Made by a program: the position numbers and the translations under genes. A model generated the notes under the pieces. It saw only the letters and a program-made list of their open reading frames with translations, did no database searches and was not told the origin of the DNA. A stretch of 64,000 nt of DNA from a virus (lineage: Duplodnaviria; Caudoviricetes). Below are positions 2,764-41,079 of the stretch, one piece after another. The DNA lies in IMG/VR virus record IMGVR_UViG_3300010373_000047, positions 273 to 64,272 of that record. One strand, written 5' to 3'. How positions within the stretch are numbered: position 1 is the stretch's first letter; every line of letters starts with the position of its first letter.

Positions 2764-3315
2764 TTATCGGGTTGAGTTTTCTCCGTGTGCGTTAATCGCA
2801 ACCGTCACGGCCGAACTGGCGATTGTGCTCTTGCTCGAAATCGCAAGCGAGCTGATCGACACGCCATCTTTGCACAAAGAGCGAAGCTGGGCGTTAGTTA
2901 GAGCGGTTGTGCCGGTAGCTGTAGCGGTAAACGTCTGCGATGCGTTGGTGCCGTCAGAAAAGTTTGACACGATCTGCACTGTCGCGGTTTCCGAGCCGAA
3001 CGTGCCTCCGAACACGATGTCGAGAGACAGCGGAATCAGCTCCGTCGCCCCAGGGTCGGGTGTAACGTTCTGAGCGGTGCCGTACGTGCCGAGCGTAGCT
3101 GACGGATTGACGCCAGTGAGCGCCGCCTTCCAAATTCCGCCACCCTGCTTGACAGCAACCACCGACCACCCCTGGATCAATAGTGCGGCAACGTCACCAG
3201 GGTCTGTTATGGTATAAACTCCGTTGTTCGCGCTGTAGAGAGTGCCGCCCTTGCCGTACACGGTGCCGAGACCGAAAGAGGCGGGCGGGACCATTGTCTG
3301 TGGGGTGAAAGGCAT
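2764..3315 (-). CDS. Putative virion structural/decoration protein
   Basis: 183 aa, Gly/Thr/Ser-rich and beta-type, RBS AAGGAG, inside the head module. Confidence 0.55.
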   Translation of the reverse strand: MPFTPQTMVPPASFGLGTVYGKGGTLYSANNGVYTITDPGDVAALLIQGWSVVAVKQGGGIWKAALTGVNPSATLGTYGTAQNVTPDPGATELIPLSLDIVFGGTFGSETATVQIVSNFSDGTNASQTFTATATGTTALTNAQLRSLCKDGVSISSLAISSKSTIASSAVTVAINAHGENSTR

Positions 3316-3360
3316 TTATCGCTGCTCCTTGAAAGGCACAAAGTTTGCTTGCTGCAGTCA

Positions 3361-3394
3361 AATGTAGCAAACGTCGTGCCTATCCGATAATAGG
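3361..3394 (-). promoter_or_regulatory. Putative late promoter (TATTATCG-N18-TACATT)
   Basis: Shared motif upstream of 2764..3315. Confidence 0.55.
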
Positions 3395-3401
3395 AGCTGC
3401 G

Positions 3402-4043
3402 TTATTCGTCGTCGGGCGGATAATACACTAGGGAACAACGACAATTCGGGTGCGCGGGCGGTGCGTGGTCGCCTGAAGTGAAATCGTCGCCGATATCAAT
3501 CGGCCCCTCGTCTGCGTTTTCAGGACATTCGTCGCATTCGGCTTCGTCGCCAGCGTCAAACCACGATTTTGATTGCACGCCGGATGCTTTTGCGCCCTCG
3601 AGCTGTCCGCGATTGTGGGCGAGACTGATCTCGGTGCGCGATATTACAAGCGCACGTTTAACGCCAAACACGTCGTCCATGATTGCCGTGCGCAATTCGT
3701 GAACGCTCGAGCCGGATTCGATAGCTTCGGCGAGCTTGCCTCGAACCATGTTGCGCGTTGTCTCGGTGATGGCAAATTCGGGGTTTGGGTTAGGTACGAC
3801 AGTACCGTCCGACATTACGCGCATCCCGACAAGCTCCGCTCCGCGCCGCTGGGCATAATCCTTGCCAAACACGTCGACGACGTCGAATGCGTCGTCGCTT
3901 GCGCCAAGCGCGGCCACCACCTGCTTGCCTGCCGCTGTGGCTGCCCCGCCAAGCACAAACGCGATATCGTCAAGCAGGTCGCTCCAATCGATATCGAGCG
4001 ATCCTGCTATCCGATCCGCTTCGTGTTGCGGGTTAATTGGCAA
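3402..4043 (-). CDS. Head morphogenesis / minor head protein (MuF, SPP1 gp7-like), C-terminal part
   Basis: RALVISRTE, KSW, CDEC, PPAHPNCRC motifs; probable TTG start at 4043 after GAGG (ORF track start 4100). Confidence 0.85.
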   Translation of the reverse strand: MPINPQHEADRIAGSLDIDWSDLLDDIAFVLGGAATAAGKQVVAALGASDDAFDVVDVFGKDYAQRRGAELVGMRVMSDGTVVPNPNPEFAITETTRNMVRGKLAEAIESGSSVHELRTAIMDDVFGVKRALVISRTEISLAHNRGQLEGAKASGVQSKSWFDAGDEAECDECPENADEGPIDIGDDFTSGDHAPPAHPNCRCSLVYYPPDDE

Positions 4044-5088
4044 TCTGAACCTCGGAGCCTGTATGGGCGTGCCAGACGTTGTTGCAATCGTAAGAATCAA
4101 CCGCTAACGACGCGACGCCATCGATTTGATGTGCCGCCCCTGTCGTGTCGACCTGCCACGACGGATTGCTGCCGCCCTGGCAGGTGTTTTCGACACCGCC
4201 GTTGTACGTCGGCTGACCGTTCAGCGTCAGACACAGATAACAATAGCTCGCATCGTTTGGCGGCTGGGTTGTTACTGTGATCGTACCCGTTACCGTCGAG
4301 CCCATGATAGGCGACGTAACGGCAAACTGGGTCAATCGGGCGCTCGTCTCGTCAGATTGGACGGTCGCGATATACGCCACCGCGCCGCTATCATACCAGC
4401 CGCCTGAATACCAATCGCCCATACACCCCCAGAACATTTGGTCGGTGGTGCCATTAGGGTACGTCGGATACCCAGGCGAGGTCGCCCCTGCCATATATCC
4501 GATGTCGCCAGCCATGCAAGCCTTGAGATAAGCCAGCCGGAAATCGACGTTAAATGCTGTCGAGGACCAATCCATCGGGCTGGTGTTGAAACTGGTGCGA
4601 CGCACCTGCATTAAACCGTAACTGTTCCAACAAAACCCATACGTCGACACCCAGCCGTTCCAATCGCCCGCAGCGCATTGCCCTGCGGTGAACTCGATAT
4701 CGCCTAGCTGGTGGGCGTTCTGTCCTGATTCCGCGACGCCCTCAGCGCGAATGGCGTTGAGGTATGCGGTTAGACCCCATTTTGCTGTGGCCCATTGAAT
4801 GATCGCATCCGTCGAGCCTCGATAATTGCCGGTAACGCCCGCGAAGTCTGCGGGAGGCGGTCCGCCAGCGAAATTCATCGGCGCTGCCAAGAACGACGCG
4901 AGCTGTGACGACGTCGGCACAGTATGGTTTGGAAGGTAATTTTCTGGGTGGCTTTCTGGCGAACCAGAAACCGGCACAACCGCGTTCGCCGCCTGGGCGT
5001 CTGTTAATACCGGACTTGATGTAGCGCCCGCCACACCGCACCACGTCGCTACCGATAGCGCGAGAAAAAGAATCACTAAACGTCGCAT
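4033..5088 (-). CDS. Exported protein with lysozyme-like/lytic transglycosylase-like domain and C-terminal Ig-like domain
   Basis: Signal peptide MRRLVILFLALSVATWCGVAGA; IIQWATAKWG, AEGVAES, SYGLMQV, STAFNVD motifs (ES and GLMQ as in SLT enzymes). Confidence 0.6.
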   Translation of the reverse strand: MRRLVILFLALSVATWCGVAGATSSPVLTDAQAANAVVPVSGSPESHPENYLPNHTVPTSSQLASFLAAPMNFAGGPPPADFAGVTGNYRGSTDAIIQWATAKWGLTAYLNAIRAEGVAESGQNAHQLGDIEFTAGQCAAGDWNGWVSTYGFCWNSYGLMQVRRTSFNTSPMDWSSTAFNVDFRLAYLKACMAGDIGYMAGATSPGYPTYPNGTTDQMFWGCMGDWYSGGWYDSGAVAYIATVQSDETSARLTQFAVTSPIMGSTVTGTITVTTQPPNDASYCYLCLTLNGQPTYNGGVENTCQGGSNPSWQVDTTGAAHQIDGVASLAVDSYDCNNVWHAHTGSEVQIAN

Positions 5089-5105
5089 ACCCCTTGCTCC
5101 CCTTT

Positions 5106-5330
5106 TTAATCGGCGTGCATTTTTGCAAGCCGTTTTACGCTCTTTGAACGGTCCAGCACCACTACCTTATGGAGTGCCCGATGCTTGGCGCACGGATAGC
5201 GCACACCAGGCATCAACCAGCACGCCTGAGACGTTCCAGCGCCAAACAGTCGCGCCGGTAGTTGACGTGGCTGGCACGGCATCGACGTACCGCAATCAGG
5301 ACAAGCGTGCACGTGCCCAGGCGCTGGCAT
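5106..5330 (-). CDS. Small Cys/His-rich hypothetical protein
   Basis: HVHACPDCG...C...CAKH; TAATG-coupled to the upstream gene. Confidence 0.45.
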   Translation of the reverse strand: MPAPGHVHACPDCGTSMPCQPRQLPARLFGAGTSQACWLMPGVRYPCAKHRALHKVVVLDRSKSVKRLAKMHAD

Positions 5331-6430
5331 TACATGATCGGATTGCCGGACGCCATTCGGAGATGAACCCCGACAAGCTCCGCGCTATCCGCTCCGTTGC
5401 TGCCGACGGCCGAACCTTTTTTGAAAATGACTCCGTTTGTCGCAGGAGACGCTGTTATTGAAACCGCCACCCCTCCAGGACACGATGGCCCAGTTCCGAT
5501 TCCGGTGCAGCACGCTGCTGCGCCATACCACGATGTGCCCGATCCGGTACAGGTGTTGGCGGCAACGCACCACGTTTGCCAAGGCGCATACACGTCATTA
5601 CTGCTGGTGGCTGTGTCGACAAGTCCTGGGCTTTGTATGACAACTGGGCTCGCCGGTATGGCCGCGCTATTCCAGCCGTGCCCGTCTGTGTGTGGGGTGC
5701 CGGTGGCGTTTTCGGTTAACGATATCAATAGCGTTGACGGAACCGTTGTGTAGGTGAACGCGAGCGAGCCTTCGTCAATTTTTAGGAACGCGTTGCCAAC
5801 GCCTGGGTCGTATGGATAACACCCCATTGAGCCGTTTGCCAACGTGCCGGTATTGCCAGCAGCAATCGTGACGTCGCCGCTAGGAATGAGGCGCATGTAG
5901 TTATCTAACGGGTCGAAGCTTTTGGCGACTATTTTCCAGTCGCCCACGCCATCCGACCACACACATCGGGTCATTCCCTTGGGCGCAGCAACAGCCGATC
6001 CTCCCGCCGTTCCGCCACCCATCCAAAGTCCGTGCGTCGAGCCTTCTATAGTATCGGTGCCAGGGCTCGCGTTAACTACGACCTTGAACGGAGGTAAATT
6101 GGAATCGTATCGCTTAAAGCAAATAAGGTGGTGCGAATCGGTTGAATTGGTCGGTAGGACTGCGGTAAACAGAGCGCCCGAAGTATTGTTCACGATCAAC
6201 AGCGAATCCGTGTTTAGTACCGTATAACTCGATCCGCTCGTCCCGATAGTCGTGCCTGACCAATGCGCCCCGATAACGGTAGGCGCAGACGAACCCGCGA
6301 CGCTCAATAGATCGCCGCTAAACGCTGGAATGTTGAACGGGTTGCCCTGCGAGCTGTCCATCAAACCGCCCGCATAAACGGGCGCAGCCAACAGCAACAG
6401 CGTCGCGATGATTGCGCGTATTATTTTCAT
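5330..6430 (-). CDS. Exported protein with tail-fibre-like beta domain
   Basis: Signal peptide MKIIRAIIATLLLLAAPVYA; YTVLNTDSLLIVNNTSG..AVLP..FKRYD..VVVNAS..DTIEG resembles a common phage fibre motif. Confidence 0.55.
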   Translation of the reverse strand: MKIIRAIIATLLLLAAPVYAGGLMDSSQGNPFNIPAFSGDLLSVAGSSAPTVIGAHWSGTTIGTSGSSYTVLNTDSLLIVNNTSGALFTAVLPTNSTDSHHLICFKRYDSNLPPFKVVVNASPGTDTIEGSTHGLWMGGGTAGGSAVAAPKGMTRCVWSDGVGDWKIVAKSFDPLDNYMRLIPSGDVTIAAGNTGTLANGSMGCYPYDPGVGNAFLKIDEGSLAFTYTTVPSTLLISLTENATGTPHTDGHGWNSAAIPASPVVIQSPGLVDTATSSNDVYAPWQTWCVAANTCTGSGTSWYGAAACCTGIGTGPSCPGGVAVSITASPATNGVIFKKGSAVGSNGADSAELVGVHLRMASGNPIM

Positions 6431-6822
6431 TAACGTGGATACTCCAGGCAGTTAGCCGTCGAGCCGCTCGCCGAATAACAGTAAACCGCACCCGTAGTTG
6501 GGAACGATGCAACCGATCCGGCATGGTTGCCGGTAGCGTCAGCCGCCAGCACCTGGCCTTGCGTTGCGCCGACGTTCGCGTCGCCGCACGCTATCGGGTT
6601 CGCTCCGGTATTCTGGACGCTGACTCCGTATCGATGGTTGGCGTTCGCAGGGCAAACCTGGATCGGGGTCGTGCTTACCGTAGTCCATGCGTGCGACAAC
6701 GGAGACGCGCCCGACACCGCGATAGGGGTGCCATAATCATCAGCACGCACCGATCCGGTTTTGACTACTAATAGACACAACCCGAACGCTAGCGCGATGG
6801 AGCCGGTTTTAACGCCCAGCAT
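6430..6822 (-). CDS. Small exported protein resembling phage structural proteins
   Basis: Probable start ATG 6822 (RBS AAAGGA); signal-like MLGVKTGSIALAFGLCLLVVKTGSVRA; NxxRxxxxVQNTG..I..G...G..L...GAVY pattern. Confidence 0.5.
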   Translation of the reverse strand: MLGVKTGSIALAFGLCLLVVKTGSVRADDYGTPIAVSGASPLSHAWTTVSTTPIQVCPANANHRYGVSVQNTGANPIACGDANVGATQGQVLAADATGNHAGSVASFPTTGAVYCYSASGSTANCLEYPR

Positions 6823-6918
6823 CGGACGATCCTTTTTTCGGCTGAAGCTTTTGTACGTGCTCATATTCTTTAATGACCTGTTCGCAGATTTTCTCGCCTT
6901 GAGCCTTAAGAAACCGTT

Positions 6919-8580
6919 TTAATATCTGAGCCAGTTTGCGCTCGGCTTGACGGCTGGCCTTAAGTTTTTCGGGTCCACCGAAATGAACGGCTCGCTTGAC
7001 TTTTTTTTTACGTCAGGGCCGTCGAGCTTTTTGGTTTTCGTCGCCGGTTTGGGAATCGGAGTTTTCATTTCCCGATCATGGATCTCACTCGCGCGCTGGT
7101 TTTCGTCGTCGGACTGCGACATCTGCTGGTCGTGACTTTCTTGGGTCCGCTGCTCGTTGTTCGCAGCGAACTGTACCTGCTGCGAGGCCATCGCCACCGC
7201 GTCCTCAAGCTTGGTTGCGCCCGACGCCGTGATGATAACCAGCTCGTCAGCAACGCCACCCTTGGGCGGCTGTCCGATTTTCGACCGCCCCTCGTCTGGA
7301 GTCATTAGCCCTTTGGAAACATAGCCCGTTACGGTCTGCATTTCCTTGAGCTGGTCGAGCTGTTCTTCCTGGGTAAAGACAAACTCGATGTCCGTCCATC
7401 CGAAATGCTCCTGGATGATCGGGTCCATGATTTCGTCTTTGAACCACGCCATGAGCGGCAGGAGGCCTTCTGCGAGCGCCGTTTCTTGCGCCGTTTCGGC
7501 CGTCCCACGGTTCATCATTTTGACGAATGCGCTGGGCGGAATGCTGAACGCAAAACAGAGGATACGAGCGATCCATTCGTCGTAATCGTTCTTTAGGTTC
7601 GGCCCCTTGATCTCGAACGGCTTGGAATCACCAGGGAGAAACCGCACTTTGCTTTTGAGCGCGGTATTGCCCTGCAGTAAAAAATCGAACGTCGCCTGAA
7701 ACTCTGCCGTTTGCGACGGGGTCCATTCTTTCGGCACCGTAACGATCAGGTCCGGAATCGTGCCTTGCGTCCAATAATCGAGCTGGTATAGCTCCCGACG
7801 GATGCCCTGCATGATCTCGAGATACACCTGCTCGACGGGCGAGTATCCGTATGGGCGGTGATCGGGACGCAGGTTCATCGGAGCGTAAATGATTTCGTCT
7901 GCCGTCAAATCGACAATCTGCAACCCTTTAATGATCTGTTGGTATGCCGGAGACGGAGGCTCGGGTCGACGGCCGAAATCATCGATCTTGGGCGTGATGG
8001 TCGCACCATCGATTACGCTGATAGCGTATGGAATGCCCGCCTGGGACGGCTGGATGTACAGCGTAGCAGCATCGCAAACAAACAAATCGTCGAACAGCAA
8101 ACGACACCACGCGTGCCACCTGGTTTGGCGATCCGGCTTCTTGAAAAACTGCTTAAGGTAAACGATGCGCGGATCGACTGGGGTCGTGTCAAACTTGCCG
8201 CGAGGCTTGCCGAGAATCTGAATATCCCACGGAATACGGGTGAGCTGATCTTTGCGGGTTTGAATCAGGGTGCGCAGCAACCCGAAACTGTTTGCCATAC
8301 CGCGAAGCTGCGCAAACGATATCGGCTCGAACTGTCGCGGCCCATAGTTGATGTTGTAGCCGCTGATGTAATCATACCAGCGAGGCTGGGTGACATTCGG
8401 CGGTCCGTACGGCTGAATCGGCTGCTGGGGCGAGAAGAAGTTTTTCGGATCAAGCTCTTTTATGGCATTTTGCGCCTGGGTGCGGTTTATCGGATCGTCA
8501 ACTCGAGGGTTGATACCCTTAACCGTTCCGCCCTGCTGTCGCGCCATCGCCGCTGGGTTCGGATTGTTCTTGCTGGCCAT
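6919..8580 (-). CDS. Portal protein
   Basis: ISFAQLR, DGATI, YGYSPVEQ, DEWIARILCFAFSIPP, NRGTAE motifs; 553 aa. Confidence 0.9.
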   Translation of the reverse strand: MASKNNPNPAAMARQQGGTVKGINPRVDDPINRTQAQNAIKELDPKNFFSPQQPIQPYGPPNVTQPRWYDYISGYNINYGPRQFEPISFAQLRGMANSFGLLRTLIQTRKDQLTRIPWDIQILGKPRGKFDTTPVDPRIVYLKQFFKKPDRQTRWHAWCRLLFDDLFVCDAATLYIQPSQAGIPYAISVIDGATITPKIDDFGRRPEPPSPAYQQIIKGLQIVDLTADEIIYAPMNLRPDHRPYGYSPVEQVYLEIMQGIRRELYQLDYWTQGTIPDLIVTVPKEWTPSQTAEFQATFDFLLQGNTALKSKVRFLPGDSKPFEIKGPNLKNDYDEWIARILCFAFSIPPSAFVKMMNRGTAETAQETALAEGLLPLMAWFKDEIMDPIIQEHFGWTDIEFVFTQEEQLDQLKEMQTVTGYVSKGLMTPDEGRSKIGQPPKGGVADELVIITASGATKLEDAVAMASQQVQFAANNEQRTQESHDQQMSQSDDENQRASEIHDREMKTPIPKPATKTKKLDGPDVKKKSSEPFISVDPKNLRPAVKPSANWLRY

Positions 8581-8909: not shown

Positions 8910-9320
8910 TTAGCCTACTAGCTCGAGGAAATCCCCTTCGTCGAATGCCTTGACAAACGTTTTCAAAACACCAGGAAGCTCGATACGCCTGCACCCCCTT
9001 GCTTTGACGAACGTTTTCAAACCACCAGGAAGATCGACATCCCTAAACCACGGTCGCCCAATGAGCGGTGATGTATTCCACGCTCGTACTAAAGCGTCTG
9101 CTTGTTCTGCGGTAATCTCGTTAGAGTCGAAGACGACCGCGAATTGAGTAACGTGCGCGTTGCCGAGCGCTCGCGATATCGGACACCCGCAAGACTGTTG
9201 CGGCTGCCCAAGCGGAATAGCCTCGAGCGGCTCTTTACCGAGCGCGCGTCGCGCGATGTTGATCGCCTCGAGCGCCCGCGCCTTGTATGCCTCACGCTGC
9301 GTTTCGCGCATCTTCATCAT
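8910..9320 (-). CDS. Hypothetical protein with internal 18-aa duplication
   Basis: Start MMKMRETQ with RBS AGGAGG; CGCPISRAL motif; LPGxLKTFVKA occurs twice. Confidence 0.6.
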   Translation of the reverse strand: MMKMRETQREAYKARALEAINIARRALGKEPLEAIPLGQPQQSCGCPISRALGNAHVTQFAVVFDSNEITAEQADALVRAWNTSPLIGRPWFRDVDLPGGLKTFVKARGCRRIELPGVLKTFVKAFDEGDFLELVG

Positions 9321-11382
9321 TTCCGTGTCCCTCCTGGTTGAAAATTTTACCATAGATACCGGTGGTGGCAAGCTGGCGACGGTACTTGCGCACAATCCGC
9401 TTGCCGAGCGCCGCTTGTTTGGCTGTCAATCGCGCCGACTCGGCTAGGCTGTGGCCAATCTGGGCGTCGATCTTGTTAAAGCCTATACCGTCAAACGTAC
9501 TCGCCCAGTTACATACGCCAGCAAGCATCTTAAGCGCCGTGTGGATGGCCGCAATCTGATCGTTAGGAAGAGCCACGGCCTCGCGAACGATATCCTCGCG
9601 CTTGGCTTTTTTGGTTGACGCCTCGTAGTTCGAGGTCGGAGCGGGCGCTTGCGCCTCTTCTGGCGAATCCTCGACCGCCAAATCAAGCGCCTTGTCTGCG
9701 ATCTCTTGTTTGGCGATGCAAACCTTGATCATTTTGACAGCCACCGATCCGTTCAAAACCAAATGCTGGATTAGGCAAGATTCGCGCTGTCCGATGCGAT
9801 GCACGCGATCCTCAGCCTGGGTAATGTTCCCAGGAACCCAGTCTTCCTCGACGAACACTACGTGGCTCGATGCCGTCAGGGTGATGCCGACGCCCGCCGC
9901 CGTGATCGAGCCAACGAATACTTGACAGCTTGGATCGGTTTGGAATCGCTGCACCGCCGCATCGCGATCCGCCAGCTTGGTTTCGCCGTTGACCCGCACC
10001 GCCGCATCGCCGAACGCATCCGCGATGCCGTTCAGGACGTCGTGGTGCCAGCCCATAACCACGATTTTGTGGGTCGGATCGTCCTCAGTTGCATCCTTGA
10101 GGAACTCGATAGCCTTCGGCAGCAGCGCTACCGCCTCTTCGTGCCGAACGCGAGCCAGCTCGCTAAACGCGATACCCTTTGCAGCCTTAAGCCGCGCCAC
10201 CGCCTCGTGGTAAACGTTCTCGTCGTCGCCCGCCTTGGCTAGCTCGACGGCCGCTTCGAGGTCGTCAATTTCTGATGCCAGCCTGTCCATGCGTTCGCGC
10301 CCTGATGTTACGACGCCCGTTGCGCCGTTCGCGTCGAGCTCGACTACTTGACGGCGCTTTGCAGGCAATTCGGTTAACACCTCGGCCTTCAGCCGCCGTA
10401 TCAGGATCGTGGTCCGGAGGATATCCTGTAGCTCGCCCAGATTGCTCGCGCCGGTAGGTGCACCGGTTCCTGGAGCCCAATTACAAAACCTCTTCGCGAA
10501 ATCATAGAACCTGGGGCGAACCTCGCCCTGTTTGTTAACGTATGTCCAGGTTTTCGGATCGAGCCTGAGCAGAAACGGCCACAGCTCGACGGGGCGATTG
10601 ACGATTGGCGTGCCCGTCATATAAACGCGCCGCTTTGCCGCGATCTTGTCGATAGCCTCGGAGCGCTTAGCCTTTGGGTTTTTCAGCCGATGGCATTCAT
10701 CCACCACAAGCAAATCAAACTCCCGCATCAGGCTAGCGTGCCGCAGCTTAGCAGTTGGCTTATGCTGTTTTTTGCTTACCGTCTTGTTGTACGCGATGGC
10801 GTCTTTGTCGGCTTCCCATACCGACTCGTAATTGATGATTACGATATCGGTCGCTGGGCATTCCTGGCTCGCCCCGATGCCGATGCTGAACGGGCGCACC
10901 AGCCATTTTTTCATCTCGCGCGCCCAGTTGCCCTTGAGCGTCGCTGGGCAAATCACGCAAACCGTCTGGATTGACGGATCGTAATTGATTAACCCGATGG
11001 CCTGGATCGTCTTACCGAGGCCCATTTCATCGCCGAGCAGCGTGTTTGGGCGCTTGCTCATGAACGAGATACCGGCCTTCTGGTACGGCAAATAATCGCA
11101 TCCGGCTGGCGCAGGAATTTGGATCGCTGCATCCGTAGCCTTGCTAGCCTCGAGCGCCGCGCGCCGCGCCTCGAGCGCTGTTTCGTTCAACGAGGATAGC
11201 TCGGCCTTGAGCGTCGCGTCGACGGCAAACGAGGCTAGCTTTGCCGCCTTGGTTTTGTCGTCGGTCCACCATTCGCGCCTGTCGGGGTTCCACCGAAACT
11301 TTGCCGTCTTGGCAACTTCCTTCTCGTCGAAGGTGCAGCGGAAAACGTACCGGCTCGGGTTGTCGAGGTGTATTAGCTCCAT
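9292..11382 (-). CDS. SNF2-family (SMARCAL1/HARP-like) helicase
   Basis: LGDEMGLGKT, DECH, MTGTPIVNRPVEL, GVGITLT, QAEDRVHRIGQ. Confidence 0.92.
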   Translation of the reverse strand: MELIHLDNPSRYVFRCTFDEKEVAKTAKFRWNPDRREWWTDDKTKAAKLASFAVDATLKAELSSLNETALEARRAALEASKATDAAIQIPAPAGCDYLPYQKAGISFMSKRPNTLLGDEMGLGKTIQAIGLINYDPSIQTVCVICPATLKGNWAREMKKWLVRPFSIGIGASQECPATDIVIINYESVWEADKDAIAYNKTVSKKQHKPTAKLRHASLMREFDLLVVDECHRLKNPKAKRSEAIDKIAAKRRVYMTGTPIVNRPVELWPFLLRLDPKTWTYVNKQGEVRPRFYDFAKRFCNWAPGTGAPTGASNLGELQDILRTTILIRRLKAEVLTELPAKRRQVVELDANGATGVVTSGRERMDRLASEIDDLEAAVELAKAGDDENVYHEAVARLKAAKGIAFSELARVRHEEAVALLPKAIEFLKDATEDDPTHKIVVMGWHHDVLNGIADAFGDAAVRVNGETKLADRDAAVQRFQTDPSCQVFVGSITAAGVGITLTASSHVVFVEEDWVPGNITQAEDRVHRIGQRESCLIQHLVLNGSVAVKMIKVCIAKQEIADKALDLAVEDSPEEAQAPAPTSNYEASTKKAKREDIVREAVALPNDQIAAIHTALKMLAGVCNWASTFDGIGFNKIDAQIGHSLAESARLTAKQAALGKRIVRKYRRQLATTGIYGKIFNQEGHGNDEDARNAA

Positions 11383-12396: not shown

Positions 12397-12747
12397 TTAT
12401 TCGTCCGCCCAACCCTGCCCAGGGCGGTAAACCTTGCGCGGTTCTTTGCTCTGCTGCTCGATAACTTTTGCACTTTCGTCAGTTGTGTTAGCAGCAGGTA
12501 CAAACAGCTCGACGTGTCCGTCTGGGTGGATAAAGCGCGTCGTGCTGTCAACGCGCACCCCAGGCGTTTTCATCTTCTCGAAAAACGCGCGACCGGTCGC
12601 GGGCGCGATGTTGTTGATTGTCCGGATCGTAATCGTTCCGTCAGGCGCTTCGCTGTATGCGGTCATCGAAAACATCTTGAACCGTCGGTTCAGCATTTGC
12701 CCCGCGAGTTCAATCGCGCCATCGTTTTTAAGCTGCTTGCTGCCCAC
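12397..12747 (-). CDS. Hypothetical protein
   Basis: 116-aa ORF in operon-like chain. Confidence 0.45.
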   Translation of the reverse strand: MGSKQLKNDGAIELAGQMLNRRFKMFSMTAYSEAPDGTITIRTINNIAPATGRAFFEKMKTPGVRVDSTTRFIHPDGHVELFVPAANTTDESAKVIEQQSKEPRKVYRPGQGWADE

Positions 12748-13141
12748 TTGCCACCTCGTATATTTTCGTGAGCCCGTTTAGGCGCGTCGTTAAACGACCA
12801 TCGCGCTCAAGTTTCCGACATACCACTTTGACGTGTTGCGGATTTCGGTTGATGGCTTGCGCCACCCATCGGCTCGACGCGCCGCCTCGCCTAGATAGGA
12901 ACTCGACGGCCATCCGTTCGACGGTTTGCAAATGTGGGGCGGATTCAAGCCGTCCAATCAAGCCATCAACCCTGCGTATCTCCTCGACGAGCGCGCGCCG
13001 ATATGCGTAAACCTCGGCGTGCTCTAGGCGTTTGCGCGCCATCCACGCCCGTTTGTACTCGCGCTGGCATGGTGTGCAATGATAGCGGGCGAGTCCGTGT
13101 ACGCACGGTTTGACGCGACCCATTAGATACGCCACCACCAC
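12728..13141 (-). CDS. Putative Zn-finger + winged-HTH protein
   Basis: CVHG...CTPC, then SSRWVAQAINRNPQHVKVVCRKLERDG. Confidence 0.5.
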   Translation of the reverse strand: MVVAYLMGRVKPCVHGLARYHCTPCQREYKRAWMARKRLEHAEVYAYRRALVEEIRRVDGLIGRLESAPHLQTVERMAVEFLSRRGGASSRWVAQAINRNPQHVKVVCRKLERDGRLTTRLNGLTKIYEVASGQQAA

Positions 13142-13726: not shown

Positions 13727-14643
13727 TTGTCGCTCCCGTTAAACTGTTGCTCGAGTAGTCTCTCCTTGTACCATTCCGGCAGCCCGCGCGTCAAAAGTCG
13801 CTGGATTTGAGGCCAAGCCCACGCGAACAGCTTGTCGCGGATTTCAGCCTCGCATTCCGCGCGCACGTCAACCGGCACAGATTTCATCAGTGCTCCGATA
13901 TCGCGAGGCGAGTTGTCGAGCGTGCCGTCCTCGGCGAGGCGCTGAACGGCTTTCGCCCAGCGTGCGGGCGTGCGAAGCTGTTCGCCCAGCATCGTGACGA
14001 TATCCTGCGCGCCAGGATTGCGGGTTTTCCACTCTCCGGCGTGCGTCTCCTTGAATAACTCTGAGACAAACTTTCCCATAAGCACGTGACCGTCGATGCC
14101 GAAGCGCCGATAGTTCTTCAGCACGACGCCTTCGATTTTCTGTCCGCCGAGTACTGATTCGCGCTCGAGGTATTCGCGCACGTCGGCAACGCCGAGACGA
14201 TCCACCTTGTAGCACGGCACGCATTCGATTCCGATGCGCCCCGCTTCGTCAAGTTTGGCCTCGGGCGATAAATAAGACTCGATGCCATCGTTGATGTCGA
14301 ACAGCATCAAATAATTGAGCGGCACGCGCTTGTAACACAGCGTGTTGTGTTTGGGTTTGGCCAGATACTCGGCGCGATAAACCCACCCAGGCGTCAGACG
14401 TTCGGCGATGGCGCGAACCGTATCGCACGCTTCGGCAAACATCTTCGGCGGTGCGTCAATCGGAAACGTAGCGTTGTGCGAACGCACCAGCAGCGGCCCG
14501 AGCGGATGGTCGGGAAATAACCCGAACGAAAACTGGGAGCCGTCGATTTTTTCTTCGACGACGACCGGATCGTCAAGCAAATGCTCGAGCGCCCGATGCC
14601 CGAGCGCGTATATCTTGCCGTAGCTATTCAGCGAGTCCATCAC
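13723..14643 (-). CDS. RNA ligase family protein (Rnl2-like adenylyltransferase domain)
   Basis: EEKIDGSQFSF (motif I), YRAEYL, LFDI, EGVVLK, MGKFVSELFKE. Confidence 0.75.
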   Translation of the reverse strand: MMDSLNSYGKIYALGHRALEHLLDDPVVVEEKIDGSQFSFGLFPDHPLGPLLVRSHNATFPIDAPPKMFAEACDTVRAIAERLTPGWVYRAEYLAKPKHNTLCYKRVPLNYLMLFDINDGIESYLSPEAKLDEAGRIGIECVPCYKVDRLGVADVREYLERESVLGGQKIEGVVLKNYRRFGIDGHVLMGKFVSELFKETHAGEWKTRNPGAQDIVTMLGEQLRTPARWAKAVQRLAEDGTLDNSPRDIGALMKSVPVDVRAECEAEIRDKLFAWAWPQIQRLLTRGLPEWYKERLLEQQFNGSDK

Positions 14644-19943: not shown

Positions 19944-21599
19944 TTACGCGACCCCTAGTTCGCGTGCGCACTTGATGTGATAAATTATCTCGCCCATTTC
20001 GATCCGTGAGCCTGTAATCGGTTGCTGGCAATGTTTGCACAACTTGGCTCCGATTGTCAATTTTTGCATTGTGCGTGTGTATGTGTTCTCGCTATGTGGG
20101 GTAACGGGCGGACGTTCAGCCGGTGCTTCGATGTCGGGCGAAAGCAAGCCTTCGGATTTAGCAACGCGCCGCGCTTCGTCGCGATAGAATTTCAGGATTG
20201 ACGGCTCGGTGTTTCCAAGCGCTAAAATGAGCGCCTCTGCGCGATCCGGAGACTTGACTCCGCGCTTCTTGGCTTCCTCTTTGCGCTCGATGGCAATGCG
20301 CCCACGGTCGTCCTCTTTGTACCGGATTGACGCTAGCTGTTGGATCGTCTCCTCGTCGTTCAACCCCGCAATCAATCCGTCGCGAAACAATCCGCGCACG
20401 TGCCAGAACAGCTCGGCTTTGTAAAGATTGAACTCGGTGTCGTGTAGCGCCTTGTCGCCAAAGTTAACCGGCTGAACTGGAAACCCGTCCTCGGCAATGG
20501 TCGGCCAGAAATAGGTTCCGATGCCGGATCGGTCGATAGCGACCGTTTCGAGCATATCTTTGTTCTTGCGCAACTCTGCAAGACAGGGCTGGCGCGAATC
20601 TCCGTGCCATGCACGAAAGCCGAGTATGTTGCCGCCTTGCGTCAGATACATCACGGTCTCGTCGTCGCCAGGACCGGCAACGTCAACGCCTGCGCGCATT
20701 CGTTCGGAATTAGGCACCAGGAGCCGTTTCTGGGCGTCACGCAGCCATGCCATCGGAAAGACGCTATCCTCTGCCTGGTCTGGAAACACGCCCCGCACAC
20801 GCGATTGCCAATGAGGGCTGTTTTCGCCCCATGCGTGGTATTTCTGATACACCCACCAACGCGTCACCAAACCCAAGACAGGCTCGTGCCGGAATATCGG
20901 GTTTGACTGGTCGAGGTCTTTCGGTAGCGCCCGCAAATCGTCCACCGTAAAGCCCTCGAGGTTCGGAGTCTCGAAGGCGTCGATGGTGATGCGTTTGTAT
21001 TGATTAGCAGCCTTGCCGTGAAACGCGTCGTAATAGTATCCGCCCAGGATTGTTGGGTTGCCGAGCATCAGCAAGTGCGCCTTGCCGCCCGCCAGGTTGC
21101 CCTCGATAGCCTCCCACGGAATATCCGGAGACGACGCCTCGTCGACGATTATCAGGATGTGCCCTGCGTGATGACCCTGCATCCGTACCGCGTTCTTGGG
21201 CGCGATACCGATAACAATCGGCCGTCCCTCTTCGTCGCGTGCTTCGGCTTGCGCGTTCAGGTCCGGCAGCTTGATCCTGGATGATTGCAACGCCGCTCGA
21301 TACTCGACGCTGGCGATATTCTTAACCTGCTGCCATCCGGCAGCCGTTATCAGCACCTTGCCGTCGCTTGGATAGCGGCAATTCCACCAGGCGATAATGC
21401 GCCCGATCAAGAACGATTTGCCGGATGCGTTACACGCCTCAACGGCTACTCGGTCGTAGTCACGGATCGCTAACGCGATCTCCTCTTGTTTGCGCCACAG
21501 CTCGGTGCGCAGAACTACCGGAATGAATACGGTCGGATCGTCAACGAGGTCCGCCCAGCCTTGGGCGTCGTCGGGGTCGATTACAAGCTGTGCGCTCAC
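19944..21599 (-). CDS. Terminase large subunit
   Basis: AVEACNASGKS (Walker A), IIVDEAS (Walker B), LGNPT, GVDVAGPGDDET, SPDRAEAL; C-terminal CKHC...HIKC finger. Confidence 0.92.
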   Translation of the reverse strand: MSAQLVIDPDDAQGWADLVDDPTVFIPVVLRTELWRKQEEIALAIRDYDRVAVEACNASGKSFLIGRIIAWWNCRYPSDGKVLITAAGWQQVKNIASVEYRAALQSSRIKLPDLNAQAEARDEEGRPIVIGIAPKNAVRMQGHHAGHILIIVDEASSPDIPWEAIEGNLAGGKAHLLMLGNPTILGGYYYDAFHGKAANQYKRITIDAFETPNLEGFTVDDLRALPKDLDQSNPIFRHEPVLGLVTRWWVYQKYHAWGENSPHWQSRVRGVFPDQAEDSVFPMAWLRDAQKRLLVPNSERMRAGVDVAGPGDDETVMYLTQGGNILGFRAWHGDSRQPCLAELRKNKDMLETVAIDRSGIGTYFWPTIAEDGFPVQPVNFGDKALHDTEFNLYKAELFWHVRGLFRDGLIAGLNDEETIQQLASIRYKEDDRGRIAIERKEEAKKRGVKSPDRAEALILALGNTEPSILKFYRDEARRVAKSEGLLSPDIEAPAERPPVTPHSENTYTRTMQKLTIGAKLCKHCQQPITGSRIEMGEIIYHIKCARELGVA

Positions 21600-30465: not shown

Positions 30466-30689
30466 TCCGTCCAGTCCTCCTCGCTGTAGTGCTTGCCGAA
30501 CACCGAACGATCCGCGATGCGCTGGTGCACAACGAGGTCGTGCCAGATTGCCGTGATGTGCCGCTTCAGCCGTGCGAACGGATACCAACGTGAATGCCCT
30601 TCGGCGTTGTACCCGCAGGAGCATTTGATTGTCGATACCCACCAGTTGCCGCGCGGTGCCCAGCCTGGTCGTGTGGTTGGCTTGCTCAT
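30462..30689 (-). CDS. Hypothetical protein
   Basis: CSCG motif; ATGA overlaps. Confidence 0.45.
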   Translation of the reverse strand: MSKPTTRPGWAPRGNWWVSTIKCSCGYNAEGHSRWYPFARLKRHITAIWHDLVVHQRIADRSVFGKHYSEEDWTE

Positions 30690-32080
30690 GCGTTCTCCAG
30701 AATTGATGCCGCGAGCTTTGCGTCGCCTTTACAGAACGAATGCACGTTCTGGTGGGTTTTGACGCACTTGCGGGTTGCGGTGAACTGCTTGGGCGCTCGA
30801 ATCGATGCGCTGCCGATTGCGGTATAAAGCACAATCTCGTTGTGCAGCCATAAACCAGCACGCTCGAAACAGTCCACAGTGTAATTGGGAAAGCGTCGAT
30901 AGCGCCCCTTGGGTTCGCGCACGTCGCCGGTTACGAATGCCGCGAAGCGATTCGGCTTCAACAGCGCGCACGCTTGAGCGATGATTGAATTGTACGCCTC
31001 GCAGAATCCCTCCCAGCCGAGCGTCGATAAATCGTTCGGATCGTCGCTGTAAACCTCGAGGTCGAAATAGGGCGGACAGCTAAAAATAAAATCGAACGGC
31101 GCTGCTGGCTTTGCAAGCTCGCCAAGGTTCCGGCTATCGCCAACGATCCATATCGGATCGGGAAACGGATAGTGCTGGCCCTTGACGTTCTTGATGCGCT
31201 CCCATTGCGCTCGGTTCGCCTCGACTTGCTCTGGCCGCAGCTCGATGCCGACATACCTGCGCCCAAGACGCGCCGCGACGATGCCGCGAACGCTGCCGCC
31301 CGCAAACGGATCGAGAATGAACCCACCTGGCGGACAGTACCAGTAATACATAACCTCGCATAGCACCGGATCGAATATGCTGGTGCCGGAATGGTTCTGG
31401 GCGCATCCGCTATCGATGTTCTCTTGGCACCACCCTTGGGTTTTGATTGCCACCGTATCGCCGTATCGCGCGCCTTTGTCGCGATAGACGCTATTCTCGC
31501 CCGCGCCACCTGGTATGGCGTCTTTGTTACGGTGGCGCATGAAATCCAAATCGGGTCCGGTGTGCCACGTTAACGGCTTGCCGCGCTCGTTGTTGGCCAG
31601 CCGATCCGCCATGCCGCCGCCGCCCGATGGAATGACTGCGCCAGACTTGGAATAGTCTGCTCCGTCCGAATGCTCGCCGCGCATCAAATCCTGGCCAAAC
31701 GTGCGAGCGAAGCTGCGCCCCTTGCCGTCACCTCGTACCGTCTTGCCGTCTGTTCCGAGCGTAGCCGCTGGCATTAGCGAACGCCCTGGGCTTGCCATGC
31801 GCGCCCGATACTCGTCTTTGTCGTACCTCGCCGCTTCGTTCGCTTCGCCCGACAGCCCAAGAGCGTTCTCGCCGCGCCCGAGTTCAGACTGGATGCCTAG
31901 ACTGATCCAATCGCGCTTACGCGACTGCCATCGATCCGATCCGGCGTTCAGAACCGAGAACGGAGGCTCTAGCCATTTGTCGGTCAGCTTAACGCCCGCC
32001 TTGTCTGCGGCTGATGGCTCTGGTGCGAGGTTGATCTCGTCGACGAACGATAGCTGCGCCCCGTGCGATTCCTTTGCCAT
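30686..32080 (-). CDS. DNA methyltransferase (amino-MTase) with long low-complexity insertion
   Basis: PPFSVL, TSIFDPVLCE, ILDPFAGGSVRG, GIELR, FSCPPYFDLEVYS; start MAKESHG after TTGACT-18-TAATCT. Confidence 0.85.
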   Translation of the reverse strand: MAKESHGAQLSFVDEINLAPEPSAADKAGVKLTDKWLEPPFSVLNAGSDRWQSRKRDWISLGIQSELGRGENALGLSGEANEAARYDKDEYRARMASPGRSLMPAATLGTDGKTVRGDGKGRSFARTFGQDLMRGEHSDGADYSKSGAVIPSGGGGMADRLANNERGKPLTWHTGPDLDFMRHRNKDAIPGGAGENSVYRDKGARYGDTVAIKTQGWCQENIDSGCAQNHSGTSIFDPVLCEVMYYWYCPPGGFILDPFAGGSVRGIVAARLGRRYVGIELRPEQVEANRAQWERIKNVKGQHYPFPDPIWIVGDSRNLGELAKPAAPFDFIFSCPPYFDLEVYSDDPNDLSTLGWEGFCEAYNSIIAQACALLKPNRFAAFVTGDVREPKGRYRRFPNYTVDCFERAGLWLHNEIVLYTAIGSASIRAPKQFTATRKCVKTHQNVHSFCKGDAKLAASILENA

Positions 32081-32253
32081 ATCGACAAAGATTATCAGTG
32101 AAAAACACAAAAAGTCAAAAATAGTATGCACGGCGATGTGTATGCGCACTAACTATTGGCCTACTAATAGGCCAAATCGCGATGTGGTGGCGTCGTGGTG
32201 GCGATTTCAGGCGCGTGCATAGCATCACGCCGGAATACGCATTAAATAGGGGT

Positions 32254-39119: not shown

Positions 39120-39883
39120 CGGACGTTAGTTTTCATCACTTTCTCAACGGCCTCGGCAAGCACCGGATCGAGCTCGCCAGAATCGTAATCGTTAAGGTCG
39201 CGATAGACGGGCGCAGGCTGTTTGACGCGAGCGGCGGGCTTGTTCCATTGCGCATACTTGCGCACCCACGTATGCCAAGCCAAACCCCAATCTTTCATCA
39301 GCGATCCTCGCCCCTCGTGGTGTTCTCGGAACCCATCGAACTGGTCGTCGATTGCAGACTCTGGCATTCCACGGTCGAGCGCGAACTGTCGCAGCTTGTC
39401 GTCGAGTTTGAACGAATCCGGCAGCGAGTGTCGTTGGCGTGGGCGCGTTGCGCGCACCACAGGTTCTATTGACGGATCACATAACGGATCACATAACGGA
39501 TCTCCGGCACCGTGTGCCGGAGGGAGCGGCACCGTGTGCCGGAGGTCCTGGCACGTCGTGCCGGAGGGAGCGGCACCGTGTGCCGGAGGGAGCGGCACCG
39601 TGTGCCGGAGGGTTAGCATATACACGAGCTGATACACATCGCTAGAGCGTGCACCGCTTGCGGTAAAGCGGTCTTGTCGTCGAATCAACCCAAGCTCCTC
39701 GAGGACGGCGAGCTGCTTCCGCACACCGCGCTCGGACTGCGACGATATATCGCTGATCGTTTTTTGGCTTGGCCACGCATACCCCTGGTCGTTTGCGTAG
39801 TTCGCCAAAGCGATCAAAGTCAGTTTGGTTTGGGCGCTCAGGCCAGTAAGCTTGAACGCCCCTGAAATCGCTTCGATGCTCAA
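39116..39883 (-). CDS. Replication initiator (lambda O-like, N-terminal wHTH)
   Basis: TTG start overlapping upstream stop; KLTLIALANYANDQGYAWPSQKTIS...SERGVRKQL..LEELGLI; C-terminal F..HH.....KDW..AW.TW; directly upstream of dnaB. Confidence 0.8.
   Translation of the reverse strand: MSIEAISGAFKLTGLSAQTKLTLIALANYANDQGYAWPSQKTISDISSQSERGVRKQLAVLEELGLIRRQDRFTASGARSSDVYQLVYMLTLRHTVPLPPAHGAAPSGTTCQDLRHTVPLPPAHGAGDPLCDPLCDPSIEPVVRATRPRQRHSLPDSFKLDDKLRQFALDRGMPESAIDDQFDGFREHHEGRGSLMKDWGLAWHTWVRKYAQWNKPAARVKQPAPVYRDLNDYDSGELDPVLAEAVEKVMKTNVR
39472..39612. repeat. Probable origin iterons: 5 x 22-bp CGGCACCGTGTGCCGGAGGGAG plus 2.5 x 12-bp ACGGATCACATA
   Basis: Units at 39505, 39527, 39549, 39571 and 39593 inside the initiator gene. 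Confidence 0.8.
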
Positions 39884-41079
39884 AACGGAATCTCCTCGGT
39901 CGGTTCGGTTTTCGGTGCTTCTAAACCCCACGCAACCCACCCCGCCCGCGCCCGTCGAGCAAATAGCTCGATCTTCGGCACGTCCGGATACATACGCTCG
40001 AGAATGTCGTATATCTCGTCGGGCTTGCGCGAATGCTCGCGTCGTGGCGCATTCACCACGGATGATACCCGATTCTCGGGCAGTGGGGTAATAGGAGCGC
40101 CTCGCGAACCCACAAGTAAAACCTCGTGCTGTGCGCGAAAATAGTATCCTGGCCCGATGCTGGGCTTGACCCAAATCGCTTGCGAGCGGTACGAAAATCC
40201 CCAACGGTTCAGGATGCCAATCGCCTCCTCGACCTTCGCGGGCGGGCACCACAGGAACAGCATCGCGTCCTCGGTTAGAACGTTCTTGACTGGCAGCGCC
40301 CCGATGGCGTCGAGGGTCATCGTCGGATACTGATTTTCGACGTCTCGCGAATCCGATACAGGATGTTCGTATTGCCACGGCGGATCGGCGAGCACAAGCG
40401 CGAATTTCGCGCCCTGAAACTCCATCGTCGGGGTGCCTTCGTCAATCAGCTTGCCGATGCGCTTACGGAACCGCGCTGCATCAGCCGCCCGACGAATTTC
40501 CTTGGTGTTGCCTGCCGCCACCGTCGCCTGTTCGGGTTGCGGCAAATCAAGCAGGTGGTAGGCTTGCCCGACCTTGCACTTACCAGATTCGATTGCCGCC
40601 ACCAGCGCCGGATCGCCATCGCGGAGAACAGCCGCCGCCTGGTCGACTGTTGCGCGACCGACGGCGAAATCGTCGGCTGCTTGTTTACTGAGTCGCCCAA
40701 CGACTTTTTTCGGTAACGCCTCGCCGTTCGGCCCCGCGATCTCCTGGGCATAAAACGGCTTGGCTCGCGCCGCCGCGAGCGCTCGTTGCGATTCGTTCAG
40801 GTGGCGTCGGTAGAAGTTGACGCTCAGCACGAAATCTACAAGCGATCCGTTGCCGTCCCAAAACCGAACCGGCACGGGTTCGATGCCGAGCTCTTGCGCC
40901 GCGCGATAGCGGTGTCGGCCGTCGATGATTTGGTCGTTGTATAGCCAAATCGGCTCGCGGATTCCATGATCTTTGATGTCGCGCTTAAGCTCTTGGAAGT
41001 CCGCCTCCGGCATCACAGGAAGGATGCCGGTAACTGGGTGGCACTCGAAAGGCACCTGTCGTGGTTCGATTGTGATCAT
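39880..41079 (-). CDS. ParB-like N-terminal domain fused to MT-A70 family adenine methyltransferase
   Basis: LKRDIK.HGIREPI...IIDGRHRYRA; N.YRRHLNESQRA; LADPPW, LFLW, WVK, HEVLLVGSRG, HSRKP, ELFAR. Confidence 0.9.
   Translation of the reverse strand: MITIEPRQVPFECHPVTGILPVMPEADFQELKRDIKDHGIREPIWLYNDQIIDGRHRYRAAQELGIEPVPVRFWDGNGSLVDFVLSVNFYRRHLNESQRALAAARAKPFYAQEIAGPNGEALPKKVVGRLSKQAADDFAVGRATVDQAAAVLRDGDPALVAAIESGKCKVGQAYHLLDLPQPEQATVAAGNTKEIRRAADAARFRKRIGKLIDEGTPTMEFQGAKFALVLADPPWQYEHPVSDSRDVENQYPTMTLDAIGALPVKNVLTEDAMLFLWCPPAKVEEAIGILNRWGFSYRSQAIWVKPSIGPGYYFRAQHEVLLVGSRGAPITPLPENRVSSVVNAPRREHSRKPDEIYDILERMYPDVPKIELFARRARAGWVAWGLEAPKTEPTEEIPF

Follow-up and report, generated by a model that had tools for sequence, protein, structure and literature searches.

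A candidate -1 recoding site between the portal gene and a MuF helix in a tailed phage and its relatives

Candidate slip site and -1 frame at the end of the portal gene

The portal gene of the virus record IMGVR_UViG_3300010373_000047 (Duplodnaviria; Caudoviricetes; IMG/VR, 64,272 bases, CheckV rating complete) contains a run of nine A's followed by G shortly before its end, and the -1 frame stays open across the portal stop. The question raised by this locus is whether a fraction of the portal subunits carries a C-terminal extension read from that frame. The stretch analysed, here called the window, comprises 64,000 nucleotides (nt), positions 273 to 64,272 of the record; the portal, the -1 frame and the MuF and cassette genes described below lie on its minus strand. 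Comparison with related loci suggests that a trans-frame portal-helix protein is probably made, and its production by ribosomal -1 slippage at A_AAA_AAG is the account favoured here, with a probability of about 0.55.

The portal open reading frame (ORF; 6919-8580, TAA stop at 6921-6919) encodes a frame 0 product of 553 amino acids (aa), which ends in KKK and 26 further aa closing with W-L-R-Y*. It matched PF04860 in Pfam (4.8e-17) and phrog_2662 in PHROG (4.4e-70), the latter over profile positions 35-476 of 717 only. In the phase of this ORF, the minus strand reads GAC (7014-7012) GTA (7011-7009) AAA AAA AAG, with the nine A's at 7009-7001 and the G at 7000; the Val codon GTA contributes the A that completes the run. 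Since these codons share the phase of the portal ORF, A_AAA_AAG at 7006-7000, within the A9G slip site (7000-7009), is a properly phased X_XXY_YYZ heptamer with AAA (7005-7003) in the P site and AAG (7002-7000) in the A site. The -1 frame is open from 7012 to a TAA at 6811-6809. The extension that it encodes (6809-7006) comprises 63 residues after KKK, with the core AERKLAQILKRFLKAQGEKICEQVIKEY, and none of 67 codons in this frame is ATG, GTG or TTG. The original prediction, made from the letters alone, had described the same heptamer at the portal C terminus, the frame 0 stop at 6919, a -1 frame open to 6809 and no start codon with a ribosome-binding site near its beginning. All of this was confirmed, and the translation was identical to the peptide that it had quoted. 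The sole candidate site for independent or re-initiated translation in the -1 frame is a CTG codon (6932-6934), 13 nt before the portal stop.

The count of A's does not stem from an assembly error. Run X1 is the only public run listed with the stretch and is probably its source sample; no RNA run was listed, which has no bearing on expression. The Logan contigs of X1 reproduced window positions 4802-7400 with 0 differences and 0 gaps, and likewise 3300-4608 and 4648-4799, at a depth of about 7.5-7.9. These contigs are a second assembly rather than independent data; the A-run was checked on contigs only, and no single contig spans 4608-4802. Independent support for A9G was provided by L076, a 62.8-kb contig from another metagenome record, where the run has the same phase. 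A check for a homopolymer error had been proposed with the original prediction, and no different A count was found in the contigs or in L076. Such an error, with a true run of A10 (or A7) that would make the portal and the helix one ordinary ORF, is extremely improbable. Homopolymers are error-prone, natural A10G relatives exist and the depth is low (about 7.9), but the second assembly, probably from reads of the same sample, showed no difference over the region, and L076 has the nine A's with the same frame relations. Moreover, the relatives P0008, P0009 and P0010 were called as unfused portals of 555-576 aa with the same KKK...W-x-x-Y* end.

The -1 peptide had been predicted to resemble the helix found at the start of MuF-type minor head proteins, and sequence comparison supported this. 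Against the part of the in-frame portal-MuF fusion of locus L077 that lies downstream of the A-run, BLASTP gave an E value of 1e-6 with 14 of 30 positions identical (47%). Against the helix that opens the -1-frame MuF of 14 relatives with the heptamer C_CCT_TTA, hhalign gave an E value of 0.0031 over 23 columns, at a probability of only 10%. A profile of this helix searched against 1.84 billion representatives found only two matches, the profile being too short for more, and both were MuF ORFs of the C_CCT_TTA clade with doubtful starts. The peptide is homologous to the region N-terminal of the MuF domain.

Portal/MuF junctions in related loci

Portal relatives numbered 1542 at E <= 1e-20 among 8000 scored candidates, which were drawn from 5.8 billion proteins; they comprised unfused forms (about 550-600 aa) and forms fused to MuF. 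The closest portals, P0008 (77%), P0009 (63%) and P0010 (66%; encoded by L076), were unfused and ended in [V/L]KKK, 23-26 residues and W-x-x-Y*. In L076, GAC GTA AAA AAA AAG stands in the same phase, followed by a start-less -1 ORF with 54 residues after KKK, and the length differences between the -1 ORFs of the window and L076 are whole codons. Between the slip site and the NTG codon that lies 13 nt ahead of the portal stop, the window and L076 aligned with a score of 43 in the -1 frame (shuffles 11.6 ± 3.9; 0 of 5000 reached it) and of 7 in frame 0 (shuffles 13.4 ± 4.5; 97% reached it). This indicates that the -1 frame is under protein-level selection from just past the A-run, upstream of any conceivable start.

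The DNA of 90 related loci (L004-L093) was sorted with one script. A portal ending in W-x-x-Y* was found in 57 of them, and all 57 had an in-phase X_XXY_YYZ heptamer together with a -1 frame open across the stop; the W-x-x-Y* end was not found without the heptamer in any of the 90 loci. The heptamer was C_CCT_TT[AC] in 56 loci and A_AAA_AAG in one (L076). A MuF domain was located downstream in 53 of the 57 loci, and the remaining four loci end too soon. The other loci were in-frame fusions (11), had other portal ends with no MuF in the locus (16), ran off the locus (4) or lacked a portal-core match (2). Together with the slip site of L076 and the conservation confined to the -1 frame, the 57 heptamers support by comparison the earlier proposal that a fraction of the portal subunits would be extended. 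The alignment of relatives that had been suggested as a check likewise agreed with it: L076 shares a 15-mer with the window at the slip site, and a -1-frame MuF lies behind C_CCT_TT[AC] in the 56 loci. What goes beyond the original prediction is that the -1 ORF of the window holds the helix only, that the MuF domain gene lies 2.8 kb downstream, and that the phenomenon is family-wide.

The 56 loci with C_CCT_TT[AC] represent 35 distinct sequence contexts. In the C_CCT_TTA clade, the -1-frame MuF overlaps the last 37-40 nt of the portal, and a conserved helix (P-F-S-K-A-G-K-S-L-E-Q-[VI]-L-A-A-Y-L-K-R-K-G-K-E...) straddles the portal stop; no canonical -1-frame start precedes the helix in 36 of 56 loci. 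For the 45 nt past the portal stop, which precede the first canonical start downstream of the helix in most C_CCT_TTA loci, the mean entropy over the 35 distinct sequences was 0.34, 0.27 and 0.87 at -1-frame positions 1, 2 and 3, respectively. Variation thus falls mainly on the third positions of the -1 frame, indicating that these 45 nt are coding in that frame. The first base of the heptamer, a wobble position in frame 0, is invariably C, in the codons CGC, AAC, GCC, CAC, GAC and AGC. This is the pattern expected if the base serves tRNA re-pairing after a slip.

Independent translation of the -1 frame, by a start or post-stop re-initiation at CTG 6934-6932, would give a free peptide of about 41 aa and no portal extension. 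L076 has ATG at the equivalent position and 10 of the 56 loci of the other clade have TTG, and the relative P0128 was called from a start lying a few codons before it; in some lineages translation could begin separately, as such a start lies 13 nt before the stop. The codon is CTG, however, in the window and in 46 of the 56 loci, and no Shine-Dalgarno sequence was seen before the CTG of the window. In addition, only the -1 frame of the 19-22 preceding codons is conserved between the window and L076, which implies translation in that frame, and the conserved in-phase heptamer with its wobble first base would be left unexplained. Independent translation is very unlikely as the explanation of the -1 frame in the window.

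The A-run recurs at portal/MuF junctions with either frame order. The 15-mer GACGTAAAAAAAAAG at the junction is identical in the window, L076, L095 and L246/L266. In L095, whose portal is 39.6% identical, the 15-mer is in phase and frame 0 continues into the helix and MuF to give a 751-aa fusion (phrog_2662 1.7e-102); the -1 frame provides a 23-codon tail ending in W-E-N-Y*. The helix region of L095 is part of the segment that aligned with phrog_2468, a family of standalone MuF proteins, from profile position 44 onwards. L246/L266 encode a 725-aa fusion with the 15-mer at the junction, whose portal part belongs to a different Pfam family (Portal_T4, 3.7e-9) and whose MuF part matched PF04233 (2.8e-15). 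Since the in-frame fusions keep the 15-mer at the junction, a -1 slip in L095 and L266 would yield a short portal. In L077 and L079-L082, the in-frame fusions read GAA AAA AAA AAG, that is, A10G; the frames are fused by one A more than in the window type. The comparison suggests that a -1 shift at such junctions would give the second of two products, a plain portal or a portal with MuF sequence. In pattern searches, GTA9G...W-x-x-Y* was found at 58 loci (IMG/VR and GTDB genomes), of which only L095 was portal-linked, and the 15-mer alone occurred at no fewer than 115 IMG/VR loci, with L095 and L246 as the MuF-linked ones among the matches listed.

The W-x-x-Y* end (window 6919-6933) overlaps helix codons in all 57 unfused loci, and it recurs in a different register at the end of the -1 tail of L095 (L095:4521-4535). 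In most lineages, this end is probably a by-product of the helix codons. The conserved frame 0 stop, with its rare -1-frame codons, was considered as proof of selection on frame 0 and was dropped, as TGG...TAC TAG also occurs in the A10G fusions, where it lies in the +1 frame and is not translatable.

Direct fusions of the same two parts are found in named phages. Polewnik, a Brevundimonas phage and the nearest named phage, has a 774-aa single-ORF fusion, whose C-terminal part matched the downstream ORF of the window (E 6e-19), and a portal-MuF fusion is annotated in the Arthrobacter phage Sonali. Direct portal-MuF fusions are also described in Microbacterium phages of clusters EA and EB (PMC7302621).

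Further scans added few relatives. A genome-contig scan gave 11 prophage relatives, mostly in metagenome-assembled genomes of Acetobacteraceae or Stellaceae; ten have other portal ends and lack MuF in the locus, the remaining one being an in-frame fusion, and they are therefore uninformative on the slip site. No relatives were found in an IMG/VR scan with patterns from P0001 alone. Four unfused portals available as proteins only (P0019, P0022, P0025 and P0028) end in ...G-K-x-A-G-x-P-F-R and then in dissimilar tails. The tail of P0022 opens like the helix frame (L-S-A-L-E-S) and then diverges, which hints at frame changes elsewhere.

Possible routes to an extended portal protein

Under ribosomal slippage, most ribosomes would read the portal in frame 0 and stop at 6919, giving the 553-aa portal, and a minority would slip back one base at A_AAA_AAG (7006-7000), continue in the -1 frame for 63 codons and terminate at 6809. 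The resulting protein would consist of portal residues 1-527 and a C-terminal extension, the N-terminal helix segment of MuF (SPP1 gp7-type). In relatives, the same recoding would join the whole MuF to the portal. In the window, the MuF C-terminal domain (MuF-C) made from its own gene (4043-3402) may dock on the portal-borne helix and complete the MuF fold. In this way, each portal of twelve subunits would hold a few copies of MuF inside the head, possibly with a role in stoichiometry. The ribosomal route is favoured because the distant relatives have a non-homopolymeric heptamer and because A_AAA_AAG is well known as a site of ribosomal slippage.

Several observations weigh against this reading. 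Window-type DNA was found only in the window and L076, with P0008 and P0009 available as proteins only, and the 57 loci are not 57 independent events, since many are near-identical. The motif itself is within chance: the window has one A9 run against 0.74 expected, at least one being present in 43 of 100 shuffles, and 11 AAAAAAG against 8.3 expected. The significance of the slip site comes from the relatives. A phased heptamer, a start-less -1 ORF and conservation, as expected of a -1 frameshift site, were all found and a stimulatory element was not. The downstream RNA structure was not significant (fold z -1.04 in the window and -0.03 in L076), and no conserved upstream Shine-Dalgarno stimulator was found in the window and L076, although a GGAG was read 9 nt 5' of the slip site in L076 and not in the window. 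Stimulatory elements are absent from some known -1 frameshift sites. No Pfam or PHROG family matched the 63-aa peptide, the Phage_Mu_F domain included, and BLASTP of the peptide against the Polewnik and L095 fusions gave nothing significant. With no Pfam match here and PF04233 in a separate ORF, the -1 peptide is a piece of MuF outside the Pfam domain and not a MuF protein. The ATG of L076 and the TTG of 10 loci, 13 nt before the stop, also count on this side, as does the preservation of the A9 run to the base, including the rare GTA, beyond what a ribosomal heptamer needs; the latter points towards slippage by RNA polymerase.

By transcriptional slippage, RNA polymerase would add one A on the A9 run, and in the resulting share of A10 mRNAs the portal would continue in the helix frame. 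Slippage is known at runs of at least nine A's, such as those of Thermus dnaX and insertion sequence (IS) elements, and the A9 run is the only A/T homopolymer in the window that reaches the threshold of about nine for such a frame junction. Exactly nine A's are present in four contexts (window, L076, L095 and L266), each completed by a GTA that the heptamer does not require. GTA accounts for only 14% of Val codons, and the KKK of the slip site is the sole KKK in 12,236 sampled codons. The natural A10G of L077 and L079-L082 is the DNA form of such a transcript, and the lack of a detectable stimulatory RNA structure in the window and L076 would also fit. The 56 loci with C_CCT_TT[AC], in contrast, have no homopolymer and must use ribosomal slippage, and A_AAA_AAG is itself a ribosomal site, the two routes not being exclusive. 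The two routes are indistinguishable here; transcriptional slippage is regarded as unlikely, though clearly less so than independent translation.

Known systems share parts of the arrangement. The tau/gamma gene dnaX of E. coli also has an in-phase A_AAA_AAG and one gene with two products that share an N terminus. Unlike in the window, the dnaX shift truncates the product and is stimulated by an upstream Shine-Dalgarno sequence and a downstream stem-loop, whereas the shift in the window would extend it and no stimulator was detected; a dnaX-like truncating arrangement was found in L095 and L266. Thermus thermophilus dnaX and IS elements resemble the window in a nine-A run at the junction of overlapping frames but differ in that the more distant relatives of the window use a heptamer that is not a homopolymer. 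Programmed frameshifts are known in phage structural genes, namely those of tail chaperones, tail tube proteins and some capsid proteins. The lambda gpG/gpGT pair and the conserved tail-chaperone frameshift of tailed phages were reportedly described by Levin in 1993 and Xu in 2004. As proposed for the window, a -1 slip in this system occurs near the end of a phage structural gene and adds a C-terminal extension, at a fixed low ratio; it is conserved across phages with differing heptamers, as is the putative slip at the portal/MuF loci. Unlike the tail chaperones, the portal and MuF belong to the head module, and some relatives are in-frame fusions and others are split. The direct fusions of the EA and EB Microbacterium phages (PMC7302621), Sonali, Polewnik and phrog_2662 have the same order of parts as the window. 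They differ from it in that the window has no single ORF but a frame change, and the MuF domain gene stands behind a 2.8-kb cassette.

The sequence comparisons suggest a recoding conserved across a phage family, with a split MuF as a twist in the window phage. No description of a portal/MuF frameshift was found in the full-text literature, a search that did not extend to subscription journals and supplementary files, including those of PMC5576092 and PMC7302621. We tentatively propose, at less than even odds, that portal/MuF recoding is a general and previously unrecognised device of tailed phages, by which one gene would give a plain and a cargo-bearing portal and so fix the copy number of an internal head protein on the portal. 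As part of this proposal, and with the same reserve, the device could exist in three interconvertible states: frame 0 short with -1 long, frame 0 long with -1 short, and a fixed fusion by one extra A. In split lineages, the helix would be a docking adaptor and the gap an insertion hot spot. In many temperate phages, MuF proteins bring toxin domains into host cells (PMC5576092), which makes a rule setting MuF copy number of wider interest. For annotation, the MuF genes considered here lack a genuine start codon, and gene callers assign them a spurious one on either side (P0127 and P0128). The loci also form a natural series for the evolution of recoding sites, from A9G in either frame order, A10G fusions and C_CCT_TTA to split genes with endonuclease or cassette inserts.

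The divided MuF gene and its cassette

In the window clade MuF is split: the frameshift would add the N-terminal helix only, and the MuF C-terminal domain is a separate gene. MuF-C (213 aa; 3402-4043) starts with TTG at 4043-4041, preceded by GAGG (4053-4050) 6 nt upstream, and its start overlaps the stop (4035-4033) of a 351-aa ORF. The MuF-C ORF (4100-3402) matched PF04233 (3.7e-11) and profile positions 528-707 of phrog_2662. With the portal at positions 35-476 of the same profile, phrog_2662 is a portal-MuF fusion profile whose two ends stand apart in the window. A single portal-MuF ORF of the phrog_2662 type is not present, given the stops at 6919 and 6809 and the separate MuF-C. The N terminus of MuF-C (MPINPQHEADR) can be aligned with those of L076 (MPVDPKHLAEQ) and L006 (MPLSPDEADE), both of which start with ATG, and MuF-C is 62.5% identical to the L076 copy. 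It lies 2.8 kb downstream of the helix ORF, beyond a variable four-gene cassette. Aligned to the intact MuF of relatives, the helix peptide and MuF-C together account for its full length.

When MuF-C (213 aa) was modelled in complex with a 65-aa helix peptide, the score was 0.87 in three runs and 0.45 in the best of three controls; 58 of 80 solved complexes and 2 of 110 mismatched pairs reached the mark. The pLDDT (predicted local distance difference test) of the partner was 80-81, the runs agreed in at least 94% of contacts, and helix residues 4-55 were placed on MuF-C residues 8-46, 96-147 and 202-211. Such a pass is expected for homologous halves, since the two are halves of one fold and the model was built with alignments made in this analysis. 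The predicted docking supports binding, but its main message is that the helix is part of the MuF fold. No solved MuF-like structure was found by sequence search.

The split might also be a relic, in which a cassette cut an ancestral portal-MuF gene, fused or frameshift-coupled, and left the 63 codons as a decaying stump that is unexpressed or without a role. The MuF frame does end after 63 codons with the rest 2.8 kb away behind its own start, and in L022 a comparable stop is present, after which an ATG provides a restart with no insert in between. The split is older than the divergence of the window and L076 (66% portal identity), however, and both keep an open, start-less -1 ORF that is conserved at the protein level. 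L006 and L007 share the split point with another insert, and the helix is predicted to pack on MuF-C. A relic has a low probability on these grounds, similar to that of independent translation.

The variable cassette between the two MuF pieces (4033-6864) comprises four ORFs. Those of 144 aa (6864-6430) and 74 aa (Cys-rich; 5330-5106) each have a homologue in the L076 cassette with 48% identity, and those of 366 aa (6430-5330) and 351 aa (5088-4033) have no homologue there. No Pfam or PHROG family was found for the four ORFs, and three of them have signal-peptide-like N termini, as judged by eye. The cassette gave no sign of foreign DNA, its GC of 0.55-0.59 being similar to that of the flanks. 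A self-splicing intron in MuF was considered and rejected: neither window 3300-7200 nor L006 8300-9500 matched any Rfam family at E <= 1.

The linker between the helix and MuF-C appears as a repeated insertion point, since the inserts differ among the window, L076, L006/L007 and L034/L057. In L076, a 3.3-kb cassette with a different gene set follows the 54-residue -1 ORF and precedes an ATG-started MuF-C gene. In L006 (8504-9067, plus strand) and also in L007, a homing endonuclease gene with GIY-YIG (2.8e-11) and NUMOD3 (2.5e-14) stands exactly between the helix ORF and an ATG-started MuF-C, at the split point of the window. In L034 (5971-7155) and L057, where this region is read in the -1 frame of the portal, the helix and the MuF domain are separated by about 145 aa inserted in frame. 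This insert has no Pfam match, and its D-G-N-H-R motif is reminiscent of ParB/sulfiredoxin-type nucleases. In nrdA of the Aeromonas phage Aeh1, a gene in pieces created by homing endonuclease insertion, a phage gene is similarly split at a linker by an insert, with products that reportedly reassemble, and the insert of L006 is a GIY-YIG/NUMOD3 gene. Unlike that case, the insert of the window is a four-gene cassette without an endonuclease, and reassembly is a prediction of the complex model.

Minor observations were made on these and neighbouring genes. The 351-aa cassette protein (4033-5088) has a signal-peptide-like N terminus and may be secreted and cell-wall-active; an Atlas search gave weak leads below 0.9 only, namely SLT in 15% of cluster members (score 0.85) and Ig-like Big_7 folds at TM <0.4. 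A second AAAAAAG is present at 6832-6838 on the minus strand, near the end of the -1 ORF. As A_AAA_AAG, it is in phase with the 144-aa ORF if that starts at ATG 6864, yet it lies upstream of the alternative start ATG 6822, and it is not kept in L076, where the gene order differs. The L076 cassette includes a collagen triple-helix repeat protein (L076:11391-12326, plus strand; PF01391, 8.8e-8) with a signal-peptide-like start and no counterpart in the window. Just past MuF-C, a 183-aa ORF (window 2764-3315, minus strand) belongs to a small family without assignment, of which L076 has three copies (12499-12849, 13822-14352 and 14455-14637), one of them in the cassette. In L012 (8296-10131, plus strand), the -1-frame MuF ORF has 611 codons, about 330 more than its neighbours, and the excess may be a C-terminal extension of cargo or toxin type.

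The layout of the window is also unusual. Some 11 kb separate the portal from the large terminase (phrog_2) upstream of it, an interval that holds a helicase of SNF2 type (PF00176, 4.4e-34) and other genes, and the replication region contains two genes for ParB-like/DNA methyltransferase fusions. The window coordinates given for these features are 9292-11382, 19944-21599, 30686-32149 and 39880-41079.

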